Positions 19,005-63,854 of a stretch of DNA of 64,000 nucleotides are shown here, one piece after another. The stretch comes from Escherichia phage vB_EcoM_LNA2. Numbering within the stretch: the stretch's first letter is position 1; each line of letters starts with the position of its first letter. Location of the stretch: sequence record MZ311865.1; one strand, given 5' to 3'. The notes below the pieces were generated by a model, which saw only the letters and a list, made by a program, of their open reading frames with translations, was not told the DNA's origin and searched no databases. The position numbers and the translations under genes were made by a program.

Positions 19005-19424
19005 TTATGCAAAAGATGCTGGACAATATTTTTTGATTTGGAACTCAGGAACTACCATGAACTGTCCAGCAAAAACAATGTTATAAAGCTTGACTCCATC
19101 TTCAACCCATTGGTCACTGATGAACCCAGCGACTTGATTCGTTGTCCACGGTGTTCCATCTGTCGCAGAGGCAATGGTGAACTTGTGGTCTTTTACAACT
19201 AAAACCGATCTGCACAGTTTCCATTTGAACGCTTTTTCTTCCGGTTCAATGAATTGGCTTTTAACGTAACCAATGTTACCATCGGCGTCACGAACTTTAA
19301 CTTCGTTACGTCCAAAAACAGGATCACTCACATAAAGAACTTCAACCAACTTCCCGGCAACTTTAGAGCGAGAAGCATCCGATACGTGTACATAATCACC
19401 AATAGAGAGATTTGCAATATTCAT
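19005..19424 (-). CDS. Paralog A of a three-gene family (KOW-like N-term + conserved C-terminal domain)
   Basis: 139 aa; shares IGDYVHVSDASRSKVAGKLVEV and GFISDQWVEDGVKLYNIVF.G.F.VVPE with the next ORF. Confidence 0.55.
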   Translation of the reverse strand: MNIANLSIGDYVHVSDASRSKVAGKLVEVLYVSDPVFGRNEVKVRDADGNIGYVKSQFIEPEEKAFKWKLCRSVLVVKDHKFTIASATDGTPWTTNQVAGFISDQWVEDGVKLYNIVFAGQFMVVPEFQIKKYCPASFA

Positions 19425-19433
19425 AATAATTCC

Positions 19434-19931
19434 TTAAGCTTTACGAGGAGACACATAGCGAGTGATTTCAGATTCTTCAACAACTCGGAAGTCACCTAAG
19501 AATACAATATTGTATAGCTTTTTACCATCTTCAACCCATTGGTCGCTGATGAAGCCGCACATAGTATCAGTTTTGCTTGGATAACCGTATTCGTCGATGT
19601 AATCAAATTCTTTATCGGTTATAAATTCAACGCCTTTGCAAAGGGCCCATTTGAACTGTGTAGTAGGCTCAACGATATCGCTTGAAGCAAAGTGTGCAGG
19701 TGCAACTTCTTCGCTTGAAGCAAATTGGACTCGTATATGTTTTTCCAGGAATTTAGGACTTACGTAAGCATACTGGGCATCTTGTCCGCCAAAACTGGGG
19801 ATGATTCGAACTTTAACTTCTTTAACACGTCCCATGCCGTTAGTACGAAGCCCTGCTACTTCAACCAGACGACCTGCAGCTTTAGAACGAGAAGCAGGAG
19901 ATACACGAAGGATTTCACCAATAGTAATCAT
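19434..19931 (-). CDS. Paralog B of the same family
   Basis: ORF track 19434..19994; ATG 19931 (MITIGEILRVSPASRSKAAGRLVEV...) with SD; own promoter. Confidence 0.55.
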   Translation of the reverse strand: MITIGEILRVSPASRSKAAGRLVEVAGLRTNGMGRVKEVKVRIIPSFGGQDAQYAYVSPKFLEKHIRVQFASSEEVAPAHFASSDIVEPTTQFKWALCKGVEFITDKEFDYIDEYGYPSKTDTMCGFISDQWVEDGKKLYNIVFLGDFRVVEESEITRYVSPRKA

Positions 19932-19961
19932 ATTTTTTCTCTCTTTGTTTAAGTTGAATTC

Positions 19962-19991
19962 ATTATACTCCATCCATCCTTGGATGTAAAA
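19962..19991 (-). promoter_or_regulatory. Early promoter cassette (TTTTAC-18-TATAAT)
   Basis: TATACTCCA.CCATCCTTGG.TGTAAA family; upstream of paralog B. Confidence 0.5.
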
Positions 19992-19993
19992 CA

Positions 19994-20488
19994 TTAATTA
20001 AGAATATTAACTACTGCACTACGTGGAACAACACTAAAATCACCAGCATGAACAACGTTAATAAGTTCAACACCATCTTCAATCCACTGGTCAGTTACCC
20101 ATCCACTCACTGGACCTGCGAACGGACGTCGAATTGAAACGGCTTTACACAACAAATCAGTAGGCTCAATAGGCTTAATCAGAGTACCGTACATACAAGC
20201 GATGTCCATATCAAAGTGGAGACCATCTTTAACAGGTGCTTCTTCAATCAAGAGTTCAAAGTCGGTGCTCGGAAGGGCAGTAGTAGAAATTGTACCGTAT
20301 GAATTTTTAATTTCTAAGAATAACCAAGGGCCTTCAACTTGTTTGATGAAGTTAACAATAGTGAAACTATTACCTTGAGTGGCACCTAAAATTTCACAAA
20401 ACTTTTCATAAGCTCGCACTGAAGCACCGTACCAATTGATTTGTTTTTCGTCTTTCAGGATGTAAGTAGCCGTAGTATTGATATTCAT
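19994..20488 (-). CDS. Paralog C (shares C-terminal domain only)
   Basis: 164 aa; C-terminal GWVTDQWIEDGVELINVVHAGDFSVVP; own promoter. Confidence 0.55.
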   Translation of the reverse strand: MNINTTATYILKDEKQINWYGASVRAYEKFCEILGATQGNSFTIVNFIKQVEGPWLFLEIKNSYGTISTTALPSTDFELLIEEAPVKDGLHFDMDIACMYGTLIKPIEPTDLLCKAVSIRRPFAGPVSGWVTDQWIEDGVELINVVHAGDFSVVPRSAVVNILN

Positions 20489-20519
20489 AATGTTTTTCCT
20501 GTTTGGTTAAGATAGAAAG

Positions 20520-20549
20520 ATTATACTCCAACCATCCTTGGTTGTAAAC
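20520..20549 (-). promoter_or_regulatory. Early promoter cassette (GTTTAC-18-TATAAT)
   Basis: Same family; upstream of paralog C. Confidence 0.6.
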
Positions 20550-20554
20550 TGCTT

Positions 20555-21232
20555 TTATCGCTGTTTTACACTTAACGGGTCAGGATTCTCAGGGACATCT
20601 TCAAGGCCAAGCGCATAACGCTGAGCATATTTTAACATCAAAATATCTTTAGCACAATCATGAATACTATCATGGGCAACGAATCCTTTTAGCGTACCCA
20701 TCGGTAATGGACACATACTTAATCCTCGTGTCAACGAGTAAGCTTCGATTGCTGTACGAATATCACGTTGAGCCCAGAATTTAACCGGTTCTAATTTATC
20801 AGTATCAATATCTGGTTCAAGAACACCTTCATCACGATAGAGGTCACGAATCAAATCGACCAAGATTGGGAAGTCAAAGCTCATACCACGGCACCACATC
20901 TGTGATTTCCATTGGTCAACTTTATTAGCTCGACAATAATCTAAAAAGATTTTAATGCCTTCAAGCGTAGTGACATCGTCTTCAGACGGAGCCAAGTTTT
21001 TACGCGCTTCAGCAGATTGTTCTTTCCACCATTTCATAGTGGATTTAGCGAAAACTCGCTTCCCTTTCTGAGAAGCTAAATTAAATTTAATTCGCTTACC
21101 TCGTTGAACAAGGTCTTCAAATGATTCAACAACTTCTGGGTCGGAATTATATGCAATAACCGCAAGGTCAATAACAGCCGCTTTTGATGTATTGCCGAAT
21201 GTTTCAAAATCTATAATAACATCAGTGCTCAT
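20555..21232 (-). CDS. dexA: Exonuclease A (DnaQ-like 3'-5' exonuclease)
   Basis: 225 aa; IDFETFG exo motif; T4 synteny next to dda. Confidence 0.85.
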   Translation of the reverse strand: MSTDVIIDFETFGNTSKAAVIDLAVIAYNSDPEVVESFEDLVQRGKRIKFNLASQKGKRVFAKSTMKWWKEQSAEARKNLAPSEDDVTTLEGIKIFLDYCRANKVDQWKSQMWCRGMSFDFPILVDLIRDLYRDEGVLEPDIDTDKLEPVKFWAQRDIRTAIEAYSLTRGLSMCPLPMGTLKGFVAHDSIHDCAKDILMLKYAQRYALGLEDVPENPDPLSVKQR

Positions 21233-21241
21233 AATTTTCTC

Positions 21242-22555
21242 TCAAATAAAATGGACGTCAAACCGGCCACGAGTTGTGCCGACATACAATAACTGTTTAG
21301 CTAATTCTGAATCGGCATAATGGATACACGGTGTATAAACAAAGGCCGTGTCAACAGACATACCCTGAGCCTTATGGAAGGTTGATACTGGTAGTGCCTT
21401 CACCTTAGTGAACATACGTTTAGCATCCCAGAATTCGCTCCATGGAGCTTTACCACCTTTATTCCAGAATTTGTATGTTTCTGCTGTCTTAGCCAAAAAC
21501 AAATTGAATTTATAAAGCTCTTCTTCAGAAGAAATAACCTTTATATCTTCACGGATGTATTCTTCATCATCCCCATATGTTTCTACTGTAAGATTCCAGT
21601 ATCGTATCATATATTCGCCTGAAACACCACGTGCTTTAACGAATGTAGACGTTTCTACAGCATCTCGAATACGAACGAATTGCCCATTATTGAAAAGCAT
21701 TTCGGTCATATTTTTACCGTCTAGCTTATATGTCTTAGTAAATGGCTCTTGTAGAACAATGACTTCGTCTTTAATAAATGGTTTTTCTGTTTCAAGAAGT
21801 TTTCGGCGAATAATTGAATTTAACTTGTCCACCGACTTATTTGTGAATGCCATCATTCGATTTTCGAAAAGGTCTTCAGGAGTTTTAACGACGTTAAAAT
21901 AGTTCATCATATACGATTTAAGGTCTGTATATCCATGAACACCGTGTCCATCAACTACTTTATCGTAAATCCATTTGCCATTACGAATATCAGTCGCAAC
22001 ATCAATAATTGGTGCATTACTACGTTTAACTTCTGTAAGGTTGCATTGCACGAAGTCTTTGTGAGTGAAGAAAGGACTTAGATACGCAGTTGATTCGCCT
22101 GGGTCTACCGGTCGAATTTGACATCGGTCGCCGATTCCAATTACTGTGCACCATTTAGGGATACTAGCTAACATTATTTTAAACAGAGAACGGTCGCACA
22201 TTGACGCTTCATCAAATAACAGTACACGACACAAGGCTAAGTCGGGAACCTTTTTCTGTTCAAACAATACGTTTTCTTCGTATGTAGTTGGGTTGATTTT
22301 AAGAATGCTATGAATAGTCGATGCTTCTTGACCTGCAAGTTTGCTTAGAACCTTTTTAGCAGCATGTGTAGGGGCTGCTAAAATAATACCTGATTCTCCA
22401 GAAGAAATAAGGGCTTCAACGATGAATCTAGTAAGGGTTGTTTTACCTGTACCAGCAGGTCCATTAATAGTTACATGATGTTTCTTTTCTTTAATAGCTT
22501 CCATAACAACGTTGAAGGCGTTTTTCTGGCCTTCAGTCAAATCATCAAATGTCAT
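21242..22555 (-). CDS. dda: Dda DNA helicase (SF1)
   Basis: 437 aa; MTFDDLTEGQKNAF...GPAGTGKTT Walker A; close to recalled T4 Dda. Confidence 0.9.
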   Translation of the reverse strand: MTFDDLTEGQKNAFNVVMEAIKEKKHHVTINGPAGTGKTTLTRFIVEALISSGESGIILAAPTHAAKKVLSKLAGQEASTIHSILKINPTTYEENVLFEQKKVPDLALCRVLLFDEASMCDRSLFKIMLASIPKWCTVIGIGDRCQIRPVDPGESTAYLSPFFTHKDFVQCNLTEVKRSNAPIIDVATDIRNGKWIYDKVVDGHGVHGYTDLKSYMMNYFNVVKTPEDLFENRMMAFTNKSVDKLNSIIRRKLLETEKPFIKDEVIVLQEPFTKTYKLDGKNMTEMLFNNGQFVRIRDAVETSTFVKARGVSGEYMIRYWNLTVETYGDDEEYIREDIKVISSEEELYKFNLFLAKTAETYKFWNKGGKAPWSEFWDAKRMFTKVKALPVSTFHKAQGMSVDTAFVYTPCIHYADSELAKQLLYVGTTRGRFDVHFI

Positions 22556-55893: not shown

Positions 55894-56364
55894 TTAATCA
55901 TGTTTCCACACCCCATCGGTATTTGACCAAAGTCGCTGATTATCTGATCCTCGCCACAGCTTTTTAGTCGGAAGATTTTTCTCATACTTCCCATCAATAA
56001 TAACATCAACATATTTAAGCATTTCTAGTTGTTTAATATCTTCAAACTTATATCCTGTCCACAACCAAATGCTTTTATTGGGATAAAGATTTTTTACTGT
56101 TTGAGCAATGCGATGAATAACATCTCGGTTATCAGGATAGAGAGGGTCTCCTCCGGTTATAGTTAATCCTTCTATATAATCATTATTCAAACATTCAATC
56201 AATTGTTCTAGTGTCTCTCCAGTGAATGGAATACCATTTCTAGCATTCCATGTTGATTTATTATAACACCCTTCACATTTATGCAAACAACCTGTAACGA
56301 AAAGAACGACCCTGCAACCAGGGCCATTCACAAAATCGCAAGGATAAAATCTATCATAATTCAT
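55894..56364 (-). CDS. nrdG: Anaerobic ribonucleotide reductase activase NrdG (radical SAM)
   Basis: 156 aa; Cys-rich N-terminal CDFVNGPGC...C..C..C region. Confidence 0.9.
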   Translation of the reverse strand: MNYDRFYPCDFVNGPGCRVVLFVTGCLHKCEGCYNKSTWNARNGIPFTGETLEQLIECLNNDYIEGLTITGGDPLYPDNRDVIHRIAQTVKNLYPNKSIWLWTGYKFEDIKQLEMLKYVDVIIDGKYEKNLPTKKLWRGSDNQRLWSNTDGVWKHD

Positions 56365-58178
56365 TGGTGTTTAACCCTATGCATGATTTCTTTATTTTTA
56401 CCGAGATTAAATCCGCGTTCGTTCGGATTTCCCAAATAACCGCACGTTCTTCTTATTGTGTTCATCTTTTTAGGATCAGTTTCTCCACAAATAGAACAAA
56501 CAAATCCGTTTTCAGTAGGAGTCATTTCATGGGTACTTCCACACGTAAAACATTTATCTACTGGCATATTAACACCAAAATAATCTAAATGTTGTGCAGC
56601 ATAATCCCACACGGCCTCAAGACCTTTTAAGTTATTTTTCATATCAGGAAGTTCAACATAAGAAATGTGACCGCCGGTCGCTATGAAATGATATGGTGCT
56701 TCGCGAGAAATCTTTTCAAACGGAGTGATATTTTCTTCTACTGAAACGTGGAAACTGTTAGTATACCAGCCTTTATCGGTAACATCTTTTACACTTCCAT
56801 ATTTTTCGGTATCAAGTTTACAGAAGCGATAACAAAGGTTTTCAGCAGGAGTAGAATATAAACTAAAAGCAAATCCAGTTCTTTCAGACCACTGTTTAAG
56901 ATGAGCATTCATTTTAGTTAAAATTTCTTGCCCAATATCACGACCAACAAGAATATTCAATTCGTGAATACCAATGTATCCTAAGGACACTGAACTTCTA
57001 CCGTTTTTAAATAACTCAATTATATCGTCATCAGGTTTAAGACGAACCCCGAATGCACCTTCTTGGTAAAGAATAGGAGCAACAGTTGCTTTAACACCCT
57101 TTAAAGAACTAATTCTACACATCAAGGCTTCAAAACACAGATCCATTCGTTCATTAAATAGCTCAACAAATTTCTGTTCATTGAATTGTGTTCCAATATA
57201 AGAATCTAACGCAATACGAGGAAGATTCAGTGTTACAACACCAAGATTATTACGTCCATCAAGAATTTCATTTCCAGTCGAATCTTTCCATACACTCAAG
57301 AAACTACGACAACCCATTGGAGAAACAGGAATAGATGAACCAGTGATAGCTTTATTGTTCTTAACTGAAATAATATCAGGATACATTCTTTTGCTTGCAC
57401 ACTCTAGGGCAAGCTGCTTAATATCATAGTTCGGGTCGTCTTTATAAAGATTGACACCCTCTTCAATGAACATAACAAGTTTAGGGAAAATAGGAGTTAT
57501 TCCATCACGACCAAGGCCTTTAATGCGGTTTTTAAGAATTGCTTTCTGAATAATTCGTTCAGTCCAGTCAGTTCCAGTACCAAATGTAATTGTTACAAAA
57601 GGCGTTTGACCGTTTGAGCTAAAAAGAGTATTTACTTCATACTCATAAGCTTGAAATGCATCGTATACGTCTTTTTCTGTTTTAGATTGGGCATAATTCA
57701 ACGCATCAGCGATTTGCCATTTTTCTGCATCCTCAATATGTTTTGCATAGGTGCGTTTAACATAAGGAGAAAGTACTTTATCTACATTAGCAAAAGTCGT
57801 TCCGCCGTACTGATGTGAAGCAACCTGTGCGGTAATTTGTGCCATAATTGCAGTAGCAACACCAATCGATTTAGGCGTTTCAATTTGAGCATTACCTAGC
57901 TTAAACCCGTTTTCAAGCATTCCTTTTAAATCTACTAAACAGCAATTAGTAAATGGAAGAGCAGGGGAATAATCAATATCATGGAAATGGATAATTCCGC
58001 TTTCATGTGCTTTCATAATAAAAGACGGGACCATATTTTTGGCAATGTGCTTAGACACAATACCAGCCATAAGGTCCCGTTGAGTTGGAAAAACACGAGA
58101 ATCTTTATTAGCATTCTCGTTCAAAAGATCTTTATTAGTTTTATGAATTAATCCTTCAATTTCTTTTTCAATTTTCAT
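56361..58178 (-). CDS. nrdD: Anaerobic ribonucleotide reductase NrdD (glycyl radical enzyme), uninterrupted
   Basis: 605 aa; C-terminal glycyl radical motif RRTCGYLG and Zn-ribbon CxxC...CxxC. Confidence 0.9.
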   Translation of the reverse strand: MKIEKEIEGLIHKTNKDLLNENANKDSRVFPTQRDLMAGIVSKHIAKNMVPSFIMKAHESGIIHFHDIDYSPALPFTNCCLVDLKGMLENGFKLGNAQIETPKSIGVATAIMAQITAQVASHQYGGTTFANVDKVLSPYVKRTYAKHIEDAEKWQIADALNYAQSKTEKDVYDAFQAYEYEVNTLFSSNGQTPFVTITFGTGTDWTERIIQKAILKNRIKGLGRDGITPIFPKLVMFIEEGVNLYKDDPNYDIKQLALECASKRMYPDIISVKNNKAITGSSIPVSPMGCRSFLSVWKDSTGNEILDGRNNLGVVTLNLPRIALDSYIGTQFNEQKFVELFNERMDLCFEALMCRISSLKGVKATVAPILYQEGAFGVRLKPDDDIIELFKNGRSSVSLGYIGIHELNILVGRDIGQEILTKMNAHLKQWSERTGFAFSLYSTPAENLCYRFCKLDTEKYGSVKDVTDKGWYTNSFHVSVEENITPFEKISREAPYHFIATGGHISYVELPDMKNNLKGLEAVWDYAAQHLDYFGVNMPVDKCFTCGSTHEMTPTENGFVCSICGETDPKKMNTIRRTCGYLGNPNERGFNLGKNKEIMHRVKHQ

Positions 58179-58687: not shown

Positions 58688-58867
58688 TTAGTAAACGTTA
58701 TAAAAGTCTCGATGAAAACGTTTATATTGACGAATCATTTTCTTAGTAGGACGTGTTACTGAAATAATTGAAGTAGTCATAGTCGGATTGTTTGGAGCAC
58801 CAGTCATAACAAATTTCCAGGATTTTTGTCCATTTTTTCTTTCACCATAAAATAATTCAGTTTTCAT
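58688..58867 (-). CDS. Possible small protein, 59 aa (not in ORF track)
   Basis: Hand translation MKTELFYGERKNGQKSWKFVMTGAPNNPTMTTSIISVTRPTKKMIRQYKRFHRDFYNVY. Confidence 0.3.
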   Translation of the reverse strand: MKTELFYGERKNGQKSWKFVMTGAPNNPTMTTSIISVTRPTKKMIRQYKRFHRDFYNVY

Positions 58868-58876
58868 AATAAACCT

Positions 58877-59290
58877 TTAACTTAAACGTCTTTCTAAATA
58901 TTCAATGTATTCCGCTGCGGCTTGCATCAGATTACCTTCATAACCGTCATTATTTTCTTGGGCGGCTAATTTAGCTAAAGCATAAGAAATACGTTCACCT
59001 TCGAATTCGCCAAGTCCACCATCACAAACTACTTGGTCAATTTCTTCGAGTTCATCTATTGAATGGGCTTCCCAGAAGCACCAAAGAGAAGTATCACGGT
59101 CATAGATGCAAAGTTTCTCACCTGTGTTCAACATCACTTCGATAATGCCATGGTCGCCATAACCATCTTCGGTAGTAGTACCAATTACCTTGATGATTGT
59201 TCCTTTCTTTAATTCAGGAAACTTGACTTGTAGTTCTTCATCTTCTTTAACAATCTTGAACCATTTACCGCGAGTTTCAGAAATATTCAT
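58877..59290 (-). CDS. Hypothetical protein, ~137 aa
   Basis: ORF track 58877..59308 (TTG); ATG 59290 with GGAG SD. Confidence 0.45.
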   Translation of the reverse strand: MNISETRGKWFKIVKEDEELQVKFPELKKGTIIKVIGTTTEDGYGDHGIIEVMLNTGEKLCIYDRDTSLWCFWEAHSIDELEEIDQVVCDGGLGEFEGERISYALAKLAAQENNDGYEGNLMQAAAEYIEYLERRLS

Positions 59291-59415
59291 AACCATACTC
59301 CATATCAATTAATTCATTTATTGAAGGTTCATCATAACACGTTTCTTCGTCGTTGTAAACTGTTTCGACGTCTGGCTCGACTGTCTCCCATCGAGCCGAA
59401 TACCACGGTTTAACC

Positions 59416-59582: not shown

Positions 59583-59798
59583 TTACCCCAGTTTAACCAT
59601 GCAATCGCCGTATTTCCATTTAGAAATAGACTTTTCGCCATTAGAATAATAAACTTCGAGTTTAGCACGATTATTTTTAATTTGAATAACCTTGGCTGTC
59701 ATCAAAGTTCCATACCCATAGTAAACTGCAACTTCATCACCTACATATACCGCGTTTCCACGGTAGTCATGGATATAATCAGTTCCTTCAAGCATCAT
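59583..59798 (-). CDS. Hypothetical protein, 71 aa
   Basis: ORF track. Confidence 0.45.
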   Translation of the reverse strand: MMLEGTDYIHDYRGNAVYVGDEVAVYYGYGTLMTAKVIQIKNNRAKLEVYYSNGEKSISKWKYGDCMVKLG

Positions 59799-60058
59799 TT
59801 AAAATATTCTCGCAGTTGATCAAATCCACCAATGTGACTTCCGTCAGGAGCAAACACTTGAGGCATAGTCAATCCAACTTGTGATTCGCGTCCAAGCTTA
59901 ACAAGAAGCTCAGTAATTTTCTCATCGTCGAACACACCTTTTTCTGGCATAACATTAATGAATTCGAACGGCTGTTTCTTAACAGTCAGCAATCGTTTCG
60001 CATTATCACAATAAATGCATTTATGAATAGTAGAGTCATACCCGTACACTTTAAACAT
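59795..60058 (-). CDS. nrdC: Thioredoxin/glutaredoxin NrdC
   Basis: ORF track 59795..60076; ATG 60058 gives MFKVYGYDSTIHKCIYCDNAKRLL... matching recalled T4 NrdC. Confidence 0.85.
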   Translation of the reverse strand: MFKVYGYDSTIHKCIYCDNAKRLLTVKKQPFEFINVMPEKGVFDDEKITELLVKLGRESQVGLTMPQVFAPDGSHIGGFDQLREYFK

Positions 60059-60464
60059 TATTTTTCCTTTCATCAATTAAATATGCAATGCCAAATACAA
60101 TACATGTAATAAAACCTGTGATACAGATAGAAACCAACAACACTGTACCAAAGAACCAAATCAAGTTATCTTTAGTAGTTTGTTTGATATCCATCTCACG
60201 AATTTCTATAGCTATCGTATCACCTTTATTCAGAAGCGTATAAAACGATGGCGATACACGCCTGTCAAAAACTCGTCCTTGCTCATCTTTATAGACTGCA
60301 ATAAATTCTAATTTAGAATATTTTCCTGTAGATTGGCCTGAGATTAATTCCACTACCTCCACAGGAATTACTTTAGTTTCCATGTAAGTATTCTGGCTGT
60401 TCCAAATGAATGGAATAATAGCAAAAACTAAAGCTGTGATAAAACAACGAAGGCTATATCTCAT
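60051..60464 (-). CDS. Membrane protein, 137 aa
   Basis: ORF track; N- and C-terminal TM segments. Confidence 0.5.
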   Translation of the reverse strand: MRYSLRCFITALVFAIIPFIWNSQNTYMETKVIPVEVVELISGQSTGKYSKLEFIAVYKDEQGRVFDRRVSPSFYTLLNKGDTIAIEIREMDIKQTTKDNLIWFFGTVLLVSICITGFITCIVFGIAYLIDERKNNV

Positions 60465-60769
60465 TATAATGTTCTCTCAAATTTGTGGAAGCATTTACGG
60501 CATTTCAATTTCAAGTTATCAGTGGTCCAGTTAACCAGTTGGACTTGGATAGTTCCACATTCCGGACATGGATGTTTTGCTGCCGATTTGGCAGCATTTT
60601 CACGTCGTTCAACCATTTTCATTATTTCGTTCCATGCCGGAGGAACAAACTCTTCTTCACCGTGGATTTTATCTCGCTGAACAAATTCAATCTTTGAACT
60701 ATCGTCAATAAACTTAACCAAGCCATGATTAGTGCTCATACCAATATCCTCTAAAAGACGTAGTTTCAT
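60464..60769 (-). CDS. Zinc-ribbon protein, 101 aa
   Basis: ORF track; CPECG ... CRKC. Confidence 0.5.
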   Translation of the reverse strand: MKLRLLEDIGMSTNHGLVKFIDDSSKIEFVQRDKIHGEEEFVPPAWNEIMKMVERRENAAKSAAKHPCPECGTIQVQLVNWTTDNLKLKCRKCFHKFERTL

Positions 60770-61719
60770 TATAACACCTCAATGGCATTTCGTAAACCAT
60801 CCGCTTTCGCATTCAGAGCTTTTAACGATTTAGTTTGTTCTGCAATCTGGGCTTCGACTTCTTTCAGACGAGATTTGAGATATTCGCGTTCTTCTCTTAA
60901 GTTATCAACTTTTTCTGCTTTAGGCTCTTTAATAGGCTTAGGCTTATACTCGTTAGGGTTCTTCAACTTAATTTGAATGCGAGAACTGTATAACATTGAA
61001 CCATTATCTTCGGTTTCATCATACATTTCTACCACGTCCATGATTCTTAACATCATGCGAAGTTTATAAGACAGCGAACGAATGGTTTTATTGTGCTTCT
61101 TAATTTCTTCAGCTTTCATGGTGCCGAGATTACGTGAGTAATAATAAGGAACCTGAATATCAATTGATAATGATGCGGTACCATTACCGGTTGGTTTGAA
61201 CACTGCAGTAACCCAATCTTTAGCATGAACTGTATTTGTACGATCATCGCCGCCTGTGAATAATTTACGAGAATGTTTAAAAAGCATATTCACTTGGTTA
61301 TTGAATTCACAAGCAAATTTATCAACAAATTTAGTTTCAGGAATGGTAGATAACCAATCAGCCAAATGAGTCTTTTTAACATCGTTAATAATAGTAAATT
61401 CAACCAAATCGGTTTTAGATGTCACAGATTTAATAAAGCTCGGCTTCATAAAGTTTTTAATGTTATCGCGAGCTACAGTAGAAGATAATAAACGAGAACG
61501 TTTGAACCATTGAAGCAGTGTCCCTAATGAATGAGAATACGCATTCTGAGTATCTTTACAGATATGATTTTCTTGGCCTGTGTATGTACCAAAATCGCGA
61601 AGAATACCACTTACTACAACTCGGTGTGGAACATCAAATCCTAATGAACCAGAAGCACGTTGGGCATGAACGTTAGCGATAAGACCTGCAAAGTATTCAA
61701 TGTAATGTGAACGTGTCAT
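60769..61719 (-). CDS. Hypothetical protein with C-terminal coiled coil, 316 aa
   Basis: ORF track; heptad-like C-terminus; own promoter cassette. Confidence 0.5.
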   Translation of the reverse strand: MTRSHYIEYFAGLIANVHAQRASGSLGFDVPHRVVVSGILRDFGTYTGQENHICKDTQNAYSHSLGTLLQWFKRSRLLSSTVARDNIKNFMKPSFIKSVTSKTDLVEFTIINDVKKTHLADWLSTIPETKFVDKFACEFNNQVNMLFKHSRKLFTGGDDRTNTVHAKDWVTAVFKPTGNGTASLSIDIQVPYYYSRNLGTMKAEEIKKHNKTIRSLSYKLRMMLRIMDVVEMYDETEDNGSMLYSSRIQIKLKNPNEYKPKPIKEPKAEKVDNLREEREYLKSRLKEVEAQIAEQTKSLKALNAKADGLRNAIEVL

Positions 61720-61747
61720 AATATTTTCCTCTCGTTAAGATAGATTC

Positions 61748-61777
61748 ATTATACTCCAACCATCCTTGGTTGTAAAC
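61748..61777 (-). promoter_or_regulatory. Early promoter cassette (GTTTAC-18-TATAAT)
   Basis: Same family as 20520-20549; upstream of ORF 60769..61719. Confidence 0.6.
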
Positions 61778-61781
61778 TGAT

Positions 61782-62741
61782 TTATGATTTTAATGCATTC
61801 ATTGCGTTAAAAAGTTTAGAGTACTGTAACTGGAGATTCGTTACAACACTTTGAGCATCACGAAGCTTAGCTTGTGCTTTGTCAAGTTCAACAGACAGTT
61901 GGTCCATAGTGGCCTTGATTTGATTGTAATGGTAATCTTCGGCCGGAAGAAGGTCATTAGAAACATTTAGTTTTACTGCAGACAGTTTGCACACATTTGG
62001 CAAACCTTTAAACATTGATTTACCCGAAGTAGAATAAGCACTTAGGACTTCGGCCTGTTCAATTGGGGTCCCAGTAAGCGATGCTTCAAACAATGCATTT
62101 TCCTTTTTAAGATTTTGATAGTATTCAGAGTCTTTGTGCCACCATGGCGCAGGAACCTTTTTACCAATAGATACACGAGCCTGGATAGCGATATTGCCCT
62201 TATTCTTGATAGGGTCAATAATATTAAGCTCACGAGAATAAATCGCTTTAATCTGGTGGATATTATCGCCTAAAACTTCCAGTGCTTGGTGGAATACACG
62301 AGCAACGTTATCATTCTTAGGATTATATGTAAGAGTGAACTCGTTCTCACTGATAACCATGATTTCTAACTTATCGTAAGTATATTTCAAATGTTTCATG
62401 TTAATTGCTTGAGGACGAATACGAGAAGCAATGGCCATCAGATTGTTAAGGTTATTTCGGAACTGTTTAGCGAAATATTGTCCTTCACCGCCGATACAAA
62501 AATTACGAAGTTTCTGTTTGGCTAATAAACGGCTGAACTCACCATTTTTAATGAACTCTTTAACGGGTGTGTTAGTAATGCATTCAAATTGAGTAAACAT
62601 ACGAGAATTAATCCCATAATATGAACAGATTTCCTCAATCTCTTCAGGAGTCTTTACAGGCATACGGATAGGATTAGGTCCTGGGGTATATGCGTTCGAG
62701 GTAAATTCTTTGATAAGTTCTCTACGTGTAATAAAAGCCAT
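61782..62741 (-). CDS. Hypothetical protein with C-terminal coiled coil, 319 aa
   Basis: ORF track; own promoter cassette. Confidence 0.5.
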   Translation of the reverse strand: MAFITRRELIKEFTSNAYTPGPNPIRMPVKTPEEIEEICSYYGINSRMFTQFECITNTPVKEFIKNGEFSRLLAKQKLRNFCIGGEGQYFAKQFRNNLNNLMAIASRIRPQAINMKHLKYTYDKLEIMVISENEFTLTYNPKNDNVARVFHQALEVLGDNIHQIKAIYSRELNIIDPIKNKGNIAIQARVSIGKKVPAPWWHKDSEYYQNLKKENALFEASLTGTPIEQAEVLSAYSTSGKSMFKGLPNVCKLSAVKLNVSNDLLPAEDYHYNQIKATMDQLSVELDKAQAKLRDAQSVVTNLQLQYSKLFNAMNALKS

Positions 62742-62767
62742 TTTATATTCCTCATGTTGAAAAATTT

Positions 62768-62797
62768 ATTATACTCCAACCATCCCTGGTTGTACAT
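62768..62797 (-). promoter_or_regulatory. Early promoter cassette (ATGTAC-18-TATAAT)
   Basis: Same family; upstream of ORF 61782..62741. Confidence 0.5.
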
Positions 62798-63792
62798 CAT
62801 TCCTTAAGAAGTTTTACTACTTGAATAAGATTAGCTCGTTCCGTTTTATTTTTACCATTTAAGCCTGCTAATCGTGAGATTTCATCGTCAGTCTGTTGAA
62901 TAGTTACATTAAGTTCGTTAATCAAAGCTTCAAAGTATTTGATTTGCTCAGCATGTTTTGATTCAAATTTCTGAACCGGAATAACGTCTTGATTCAGTTC
63001 ATCAATAAGGTCTTTAAGAGCATCTTCTTGGTTGATATCATATTCAACTTCTTTTATTTCTTCAACGAGCTCGTCTTTATATCTAACGTCTTTTAGTCCT
63101 GGTGCTGGTCCTGAAATCTCTTCTTTAAGAGTACAAACATATCCAATACGGTATCCAATGCTGTCTCGCTTGATATCAACTTCGTCAATAAATCCACAAT
63201 GTTTAAGACCAGAGCCGATTAGGTCAAAATATCCTTGACGTCGTCCTTCAAACGTTACACGAACTACTAAGACAGTTTTACCTGCGACCTTTTGAAGCTC
63301 ACATTTATAAAAGTCTGTTGAACCTGAATAACGTGGATGAGTTTTAAAGTTCATCTGACGATCTAGGCCCATTTGTAAGCGTGCTGATACGGCCATAAAA
63401 CGTGTTTGATTCTCGTTAAGATGAGCAACAATCCATTTCAAAGGCATTTTACACTGTTCACGGCCGAACAAATCAGTACGTCCTAGATTACGCAGGATGT
63501 TGTTAGAGTTAATCATCGACAGAACGTTAAGTTTATTCAGCGCGCTGAAGATTCCATCGGCCATTGATTTTCCGTAACCTTTACACGCTTTAATAAGCGC
63601 TCGTGGTAGGTTAGTATAGATTTCAGACGGCATATGAAAATCAAATTTACTAGTCAGTAATTGATGAACTTGGATAGCAATTTGCTCATAATTAAGTGCT
63701 CTGCGATCATTATGGTCTTTAAACCACACTTTAATCTGTGAAGCACATAAACCGTTAATTTCATGTTTTACCGCATCAGATGTAATGCTCAT
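62797..63792 (-). CDS. Hypothetical protein with C-terminal coiled coil, 331 aa
   Basis: ORF track; degenerate copy of the promoter cassette upstream. Confidence 0.5.
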   Translation of the reverse strand: MSITSDAVKHEINGLCASQIKVWFKDHNDRRALNYEQIAIQVHQLLTSKFDFHMPSEIYTNLPRALIKACKGYGKSMADGIFSALNKLNVLSMINSNNILRNLGRTDLFGREQCKMPLKWIVAHLNENQTRFMAVSARLQMGLDRQMNFKTHPRYSGSTDFYKCELQKVAGKTVLVVRVTFEGRRQGYFDLIGSGLKHCGFIDEVDIKRDSIGYRIGYVCTLKEEISGPAPGLKDVRYKDELVEEIKEVEYDINQEDALKDLIDELNQDVIPVQKFESKHAEQIKYFEALINELNVTIQQTDDEISRLAGLNGKNKTERANLIQVVKLLKE

Positions 63793-63854
63793 AACTATTT
63801 CCTCAGATTGAATTGGAACTCAAAACCATTATAACCCGTCCTTGGGTAAAGCGT

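Follow-up and report, generated by a model that had tools for sequence, protein, structure and literature searches.

An RB69-like version of the T4 nrdC.3 to nrdC.6 genes, set between repeated early-promoter cassettes, is a probable accessory counter-defence locus

The nrdC region of T-even phages encodes published inhibitors of bacterial defence. T4 NrdC.5, the product of an early gene, allows a deletion mutant of the phage to infect E. coli carrying ECOR17 Dsr1 when it is expressed from a plasmid, as reported by Srikant, Guegler and Laub in 2022 (PMC9391042). Dsr1 is a SIR2-domain defence protein whose sensor domain is reported to recognise phage major capsid proteins. Among the neighbouring T-even gene products, gp49.2 is a published inhibitor of OLD and NrdC.1 of Septu, and T4 nrdC.3, nrdC.4, nrdC.5, and nrdC.6 were all scored non-essential by HIDEN-SEQ transposon mapping. 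A second described system is the promoter early stem-loop (PeSL) cassette, a module whose shuffling by insertion and deletion has been documented in RB49 and phi1 (Arbiol et al. 2010, PMC2839356), where reporter fusions and inverse PCR for mini-circles were used, and in T4 and PST (Comeau et al. 2014, PMC4122927); its T-even promoter consensus is TTTACW-N17-TAYWAT (PMC4122927). Here, we analyze a stretch of 64,000 nucleotides (nt) from Escherichia phage vB_EcoM_LNA2 (MZ311865.1), hereafter the window, in which three genes at 60769-63792 resemble the former system and the promoter cassettes between them the latter. The window is a Mosigvirus (RB69-like T-even) sequence with 98% identity to AlbertHofmann, mar005P1, and NBG1 by megablast.

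The explanation that best accounts for the block as a whole, and which we favor with moderate confidence, is a dispensable early host-interaction and counter-defence array: an RB69-like version of nrdC.3-nrdC.6 organized as promoter-bounded modules. The three genes, named wC, wB, and wA, are back-to-back open reading frames (ORFs). All lie on the minus strand, and the order of transcription is therefore wC, then wB, then wA:

62797-63792, minus strand: wC, 331 residues, NrdC.6 family; globular body, variable linker at ~228-255, C-terminal heptad helix at ~278-311
61782-62741, minus strand: wB, 319 residues, NrdC.5 family (Pfam DUF7235); C-terminal helix at 267-318
60769-61719, minus strand: wA, 316 residues, NrdC.3/NrdC.4 family; N-terminal helical domain at 1-85 (confident), alpha/beta middle, C-terminal helix at 275-315

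Each gene falls in a conserved, T-even-restricted family with a T4 member, and these matches identify the block as the Mosigvirus counterpart of T4 nrdC.3 to nrdC.6. It occupies the hyperplastic region between nrdC and tk, in synteny with T4 nrdC.8 ... nrdC.2, nrdC. First: wB matches the Pfam profile PF23882 (DUF7235) at 5e-122 and 407.6 bits (cut-off 30), with residues 15-318 covering profile positions 1-307 of 307, and T4 NrdC.5 matches the same profile at 5e-126 and 420.6 bits. Both proteins also match phrog_2351, and the RB69 homologue of wB is annotated NrdC.5. The two are alike in length class, whole-model Pfam match, early-promoter context, C-terminal helix, and genomic slot, between NrdC.6-like and NrdC.3/4-like genes; they differ in that pairwise identity is about 25-30%, the middle portion (~140-260) aligns poorly with insertions and deletions, and the wB allele is restricted to Mosigvirus-type genomes. 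Second: wA matches phrog_1435, which also contains T4 NrdC.3 and NrdC.4, at 8.5e-105 over residues 1-316. It is 56% identical to T4 NrdC.3 over the full length, is matched colinearly by the NrdC.4 profile (E ~1e-11), and all its close homologues carry PF26897. Like T4 nrdC.3, wA lies directly upstream of nrdC.2, but the window carries one member of the family where T4 has two. A wA-family profile recovered just five cluster representatives from 1.84e9 proteins (NrdC.3 types, fragments, and one NrdC.4 type), and the family is, as judged from such sequence matches, confined to T-even phages. Third: wC matches phrog_2257 at 2.7e-127 over residues 1-331. T4 NrdC.6 belongs to the same PHROG and aligns colinearly with wC at 29-33% identity and E 1e-18 (29% by BLASTP); precomputed PF26899 annotations are found on close wC homologues. 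wC sits in the same slot after nrdC.8 as T4 nrdC.6, with the difference that T4 has nrdC.7 between nrdC.8 and nrdC.6, whereas the nrdC.7-like gene of the window lies between nrdC.2 and nrdC.

The T4 reference for this last family deserves a comment. In GenBank, T4 nrdC.6 (L001 14067-14894) encodes 275 residues and is separated by 70 nt from nrdC.5, while its relatives have 295-300 residues; in the T4 annotation of the HIDEN-SEQ study, nrdC.6 is 891 bp long and 8 nt from nrdC.5. A tblastn search needs two pieces to cover nrdC.6 on AF158101, and the reference T4 sequence probably contains a frameshift near the 3' end of the gene.

Purifying selection acts on all three genes within Mosigvirus: the ratio of non-synonymous to synonymous substitution rates is 0.05-0.27 across the three, with 0.05-0.17 for wB and 0.06-0.15 for wC. 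Between genera, wA, wB, and wC retain 25-56% identity, in contrast to the flanks, where genes 49 and nrdC retain 89-91%. The phage collection holds 653 records of the wA family and 741 of the wC family (tblastn), together with 132 of the wB allele, all at least 79% identical; a related-locus search in IMG/VR found 3-7 loci per family. Sequence profiles of the three returned nothing meaningful from PDB, NCBIfam, or PADLOC, and no relative of solved structure, and profile searches detected no homology to core proteins for any of them.

A preliminary description of the window had reported three consecutive genes of ~320 residues with divergent N-termini and coiled-coil C-termini. The genes are present as described and the divergence is evident, but it is not restricted to the N-termini, the whole proteins being dissimilar members of three families. 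The coiled-coil assignment also stands. A crude heptad scan marks patterned segments in all three proteins (wA 267-316, wB 267-319, and wC 278-311), with the T4 paralogues alike, and AlphaFold2 builds the terminal helices of wA and wB with a predicted local distance difference test (pLDDT) score of 53-81. Alignments place a variable, indel-rich linker just before this helix. Each protein is modeled as a globular body of ~230-260 residues, a short variable linker, and an amphipathic C-terminal helix of ~45 residues, which probably drives oligomerization as a coiled coil. The confident parts of the wA model are its N-terminal domain and the terminal helix. A BFVD search with this model returned an NrdC.3 homologue and uncharacterized proteins of ~300-370 residues from T4-like phages of Serratia and Acinetobacter at E 1e-4 to 7e-4 and low template-modeling score, matches that are suggestive only; Foldseek against PDB gave no match to the wA model at E<1e-3.

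The second component of the locus is the promoter cassette. The pattern TATACTCCAACCATCCNTGGTTGTAMA occurs four times in the window, as opposed to none in 100 shuffles: exactly at 61750-61776, 62770-62796, and 20522-20548, and with 2 mismatches at 19964-19990. The four copies are near-identical over 30 nt. On the minus strand, the cassette reads T[TG]TACA, 17 nt, TATAAT, and is followed by a partly conserved TCTATCTTAAC, a Shine-Dalgarno sequence, and ATG. A collapsed relative, recognizable by its sequence CTTTACCCAAGGACGGGTTATAAT, lies upstream of wC:

61748-61777, minus strand: wA cassette; -35 TTTACA at 61771-61776, 17-nt spacer, -10 TATAAT at 61748-61753, predicted start ~61741; dyad CAACCA/TGGTTG at 61757-61762 and 61767-61772 around an AGGA loop, with GGAG between the repeat and the -10
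62768-62797, minus strand: wB cassette; -35 TGTACA at 62791-62796, -10 TATAAT at 62768-62773, predicted start ~62761; dyad at 62777-62782 and 62787-62792 around a GGGA loop
20522-20548, minus strand: exact extra copy, before a 164-residue gene (19994-20488) just downstream of dexA
19964-19990, minus strand: extra copy with the compensatory stem change CATCCA/TGGATG, before a MotB-like gene
63828-63851, minus strand: collapsed relative, downstream of nrdC.8 and upstream of wC; TATAAT at 63828-63833 and a 4-bp stem ACCC/GGGT around AAGGAC

The best two sigma-70-like minus-strand sites between 59.5 and 64 kb are the wA cassette (11/12) and the wB cassette (10/12). The former fits the T-even PeSL consensus (TTTACA-17-TATAAT), the latter nearly does (TGTACA), and the collapsed relative fails it. 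Like the T4 early promoters (PMC2988021), the cassettes have very good -35 and -10 elements, 17-nt spacing, A/T-rich upstream sequence, and a position before early genes, but they do not have the TGn extended -10. Of the ~13 early-type promoters in the window, those outside this group are dyad-free and have ...G(A/T)TA(T/C)TATAgaCCTATCAA in common, which sets the cassettes apart as a distinct subfamily. The wC stop codon is immediately adjacent to the -35 of the wB cassette, and the -35 of the wA cassette starts 12 nt past the wB stop, leaving no room for a separate terminator. A scan of the collection with CAAGGATGN{2,12}TATAAT proved too loose and was set aside for its chance matches.

The two extra cassettes belong to a second paralogue array on the minus strand (19005-20548), just downstream of dexA (20555-21232) and dda (21242-22555). 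Its three genes, of 164, ~165, and 139 residues, have the C-terminal motif GFISDQWVEDGxKLYNIVFxGxFxVVPE in common, with matches to the MotB-like families phrog_1671 and phrog_2333; two of the three stand behind the cassette type seen at wA and wB.

The cassette spacer carries an inverted repeat. In the good copies it reads CAACCA-AGGA-TGGTTG, a 6-bp stem, and the following stem variants all flank a constant AGGA:

window 19964-19990: CATCCA...TGGATG
T4, upstream of nrdC.3: AGCCA...TGGCT
T4, upstream of nrdC.4: CCACA...TGTGG
T4, upstream of nrdC.7, and JS10, upstream of nrdC.6: TACCA...TGGTA
Mosigvirus, upstream of wC: ACCCA...TGGGT

Over 12 distinct variants, whose selection by hand tempers the result, 87.5% of cells are paired, compared with 63.6% in shuffles. 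Four of the 6 stem pairs have changed on both sides, the covariation score exceeds that of all 500 shuffles, and pairing falls to 15-40% when the partner arm is slid along. The dyad looks selected, its pairing preserved from copy to copy and from genus to genus by compensatory changes, and may act as a signal for 3'-end formation or processing of read-through RNA, as a protein site, or as a recombination signal.

The third component is the variation in gene content, compared here by mapping gene order in the window, in T4, and in five further T-evens (C.1 to C.8 abbreviate nrdC.1 to nrdC.8):

T4: C.8, C.7, C.6, C.5, C.4, C.3, C.2, C.1, nrdC
EC121: as T4, without C.4
ACG-C40: only a 71-residue C.5 remnant and the C.3 tail kept
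JS10 (Dhakavirus): C.8, C.6, a 301-residue C.5-like gene, C.4, C.2
window: C.8, wC, wB, wA, C.2, C.7, nrdC
ESCO47 (Mosigvirus): as the window, without wB

In ESCO47, the junction left by the missing wB gene is a hybrid cassette, identical on its left to the wB cassette and on its right to the wA cassette, which marks the cassette as a site of homologous recombination for the gain, loss, or swap of genes. EC121 has an nrdC.4-type promoter directly before its nrdC.3-like gene. Alleles move as well: the ESCO47 wC allele (L021 6001-6978) is 68% identical in amino acids and 72% in nucleotides, while its flanks match the window at ~97% identity, pointing to allele replacement by recombination. A wA-like nrdC.3 allele (73-78% identity) is present in 357 records, mostly Tequatrovirus, compared with 55% for the T4 allele. 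In ACG-C40, the locus (L022 6730-7138) is a natural deletion between nrdC.5 and nrdC.3. On this sequence evidence, the variation in gene content and the breakpoint within a cassette fit the published PeSL model of modular shuffling.

Modularity and accessory status, both suggested earlier for this interval, are thus borne out by the genome comparison with its ESCO47 breakpoint, by the non-essential T4 counterparts, and by the absence of core-protein homology in the profile searches. The possible anti-defence role put forward with them gains from the full-length DUF7235 match that wB shares with T4 NrdC.5 and from the gp49.2/OLD and NrdC.1/Septu neighbors. We conclude that the block is a modular, accessory locus, probably one of counter-defence. 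In the mechanism we propose, host sigma-70 RNA polymerase would transcribe wB and wA immediately after infection, each from its own strong copy of the early promoter, and the three products would act as host-interaction or counter-defence factors made before the host sensors fire. wB is a candidate counter-defence protein because its T4 homologue overcomes Dsr1; by this homology, it probably neutralizes a Dsr1-type SIR2 NADase, with direct binding, as shown for other phage inhibitors of sirtuin defences, the likely mechanism. By analogy, and more speculatively, wA and wC could inhibit other host systems. The cassette would do two jobs: it would give each module autonomous early expression, and, as the hybrid cassette of ESCO47 shows, its ~30 bp of shared identity let homologous recombination insert, delete, or swap whole genes, while its dyad may add one of the functions considered above.

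Several observations weigh against this interpretation. At only ~25% identity to T4 NrdC.5, wB may have a different target, and the NrdC.3/4 and NrdC.6 families have no member with a known function. The mean pLDDT of the AlphaFold2 models is 57 for wA and 40 for wB, the latter being unusable, which makes the domain picture approximate. The T4 GenBank records carry no promoter features, and a literature search returned no T4 start-site paper. Of the individual promoters claimed for the three genes, two are credible. In the collapsed relative at 63828-63851, a TTTAC-like element stands 11 nt from the -10, with no alternative -35, and the promoter scan does not list the site; with this spacing it is probably not a standard promoter, and the sequence points to a weak promoter or none. 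T4, JS10, and ESCO47 have the same collapsed element after nrdC.8. wC is probably transcribed by read-through from an nrdC.8 promoter beyond the window end. As RNA, finally, the dyad hairpin is weak, worth roughly -5 to -6 kcal/mol in folds that range from -7.6 to -11.3. It is not followed by a U tract, and the intergenic sequences do not fold more stably than shuffled ones, all of which makes a terminator role like that of the RB49 PeSL stem-loops doubtful.

This last point bears on a stronger reading in which the cassette is a full PeSL whose stem-loop terminates or attenuates upstream transcription, making each gene an insulated module. The likeness is considerable: a repeated intergenic sigma-70 early promoter with a stem-loop, followed by a Shine-Dalgarno sequence and ATG, lies between accessory ORFs of a hyperplastic region and marks the breakpoints of gene gain and loss, and compensatory changes keep the stem. 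The differences concern the stem-loop itself. In the window, the inverted repeat lies inside the 17-nt spacer between -35 and -10, whereas the stems of PST, T4, and RB49 PeSLs are upstream of the promoter; its core is CA-AGGA-TG, as opposed to AGNA-loop-TCNT in PST or G-run/C-run in RB49; and the cassette has no terminator features, the stem being just 6 bp and a terminator scan finding none on the minus strand of the interval. An intrinsic-terminator reading of the hairpin was rejected for its geometry and energy, and we regard full PeSL function as rather unlikely.

A related proposal replaces termination with processing. In T4, the endoribonuclease RegB cleaves GGAG in early intergenic regions. 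On the minus strand of the window, GGAG is found at 61754-61757 and 62774-62777, directly after the 3' arm of the stem and before the A/U-rich -10 box, where on read-through RNA it resembles a RegB site. Hairpin and GGAG together could then form an RNA-processing module, in which RegB cuts the read-through RNA 3' of the stem, the upstream mRNA keeps a protective 3' hairpin, and the cistrons are separated. The arrangement recurs, with A/U-rich sequence following GGAG, in the wA, wB, dexA-region, and T4 nrdC.3 cassettes. However, the cassettes upstream of T4 nrdC.4, T4 nrdC.7, and wC keep the stem without GGAG, and the dyad could equally act at the level of DNA; we think a RegB module improbable.

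It is similarly improbable that the cassette is no more than an early promoter that spread with gene duplications, its dyad symmetry a historical accident. Recent copying predicts the near-identity of the four window copies over 30 nt, and hairpins with an AGGA loop are not more frequent than chance (3 versus 2.3 expected). Such copying does not account for five stems (AACCA, ATCCA, AGCCA, CCACA, and TACCA/ACCCA) that each have a matching 3' arm, at paralogous sites in three genera, and the genes downstream of the cassettes (NrdC.3-like, NrdC.5-like, and MotB-like) are not mutual paralogues.

Whether the three protein families themselves share an ancestor was addressed by pairwise and profile comparison. 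wA, wB, and wC have no detectable pairwise similarity (BLASTP E>2; Smith-Waterman z<2). By profile, NrdC.3 is a clear relative of NrdC.4. An apparent match between NrdC.3/4 (35-139) and T4-type NrdC.5 (165-278), with hmmsearch E down to 2e-16, was rejected as an artefact of a chimeric sequence, P0052, in the alignment. P0052, from the public collection, is a natural in-frame NrdC.5::NrdC.3 fusion: its residues 1-129 correspond to T4-type NrdC.5 (146-272, 94%) and 124-298 to wA-type NrdC.3 (141-316, 78%). Pairwise z-scores for this match were ~0, and the strong signal is gone once P0052 is removed; the remaining cross-family hmmsearch matches at E 0.02-0.5 among 599 ORFs are weak, top-ranked, and colinear. 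After this cleaning, hhalign aligns NrdC.3/4 with NrdC.5 colinearly at a probability of 56% and E 1.2e-4, NrdC.3/4 with NrdC.6 at 6% and E 0.006, and finds nothing between NrdC.5 and NrdC.6; on shallow alignments, with an effective number of sequences (Neff) of ~1.5, the terminal helix is the sole match. Common ancestry of the three families is therefore possible and weakly suggested by sequence. Of the earlier picture of a variable N-domain joined to a coiled coil, the shared architecture stands and the implied single family has the weak support of hhalign. A bolder extension holds that nrdC.3-nrdC.6 form one fast-diversifying inhibitor superfamily, tethered by the shared C-terminal coiled coil, with each member directed against a different host immune sensor and swapped between T-even genera as a promoter-bounded cassette, the covarying AGGA-loop dyad being the portability signal (by RNA processing, protein binding, or recombination). 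We consider this unlikely; if it were true, wA and wC would be undiscovered anti-defence proteins.

Least likely is that wA, wB, and wC are subunits of one hetero-oligomeric early complex, joined by their similar C-terminal helices and devoted to taking over the host in general (its transcription, nucleoid, or membrane) and not to countering specific defences: the genes are adjacent and early, their C-terminal ends are alike (...LRNAIEVL, ...LFNAMNALKS, and ...LIQVVKLLKE), and other copies of the cassette in the window drive MotB-like genes, a family that PHROGs files under transcription regulation, but ESCO47 has lost wB, EC121 nrdC.4, and ACG-C40 two genes independently, unlike obligate partners, T4 NrdC.5 alone on a plasmid suffices against Dsr1, and all four T4 genes are individually dispensable.

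The counter-defence array that we favor is flanked as follows:

60464-60769: NrdC.2-like zinc-ribbon gene, downstream of wA
60051-60464: NrdC.7-like membrane protein gene, downstream of the NrdC.2-like gene
59795-60076: nrdC thioredoxin, after the NrdC.7-like gene, with endonuclease VII and nrdD further on
window edge: 3' end of an nrdC.8 homologue, upstream of wC

Inside the last wA codons, a promoter-like site on the minus strand (60768-60796; TTTACG, 17 nt, TATAAT with a preceding TG; 10/12) lies just upstream of the nrdC.2-like gene, whose ATG overlaps the wA stop codon (TAATG). The nrdC.7-like gene fills the slot between nrdC.2 and nrdC that in T4 holds nrdC.1, the Septu inhibitor gene, and no nrdC.1 homologue was found in the nrdC.2-nrdC stretch of the window. 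Further along, nrdD (56361-58178) is one unbroken ORF of 605 residues with no adjoining mobC; T4 nrdD, by contrast, is split by a group I intron and the gene for the homing endonuclease I-TevII, both absent here. The region of pin, the Lon inhibitor (58688-59308), has two ORFs of 59 and 139-143 residues that both match T4 Pin, so that pin is split or rearranged relative to the single 161-residue T4 gene.

The block belongs to kinds that are already known, the NrdC.3/5/6 families and PeSL-type promoter cassettes, and is not a new kind of system. Its interest lies in the T-even nrdC region, which is emerging as a counter-defence island through pin, gp49.2 and OLD, NrdC.1 and Septu, and NrdC.5 and Dsr1. 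To this region the Mosigvirus arrangement adds a very divergent NrdC.5 allele together with NrdC.3/4 and NrdC.6 neighbors of the same architecture, and wA, wC, and the wB allele are concrete candidates for defence-inhibitor screens. The comparison of ESCO47 with the window provides a clean natural case of gene loss by recombination within a shared promoter cassette, and the dyad that covariation appears to have kept in the early-promoter spacer is a specific, testable regulatory element.

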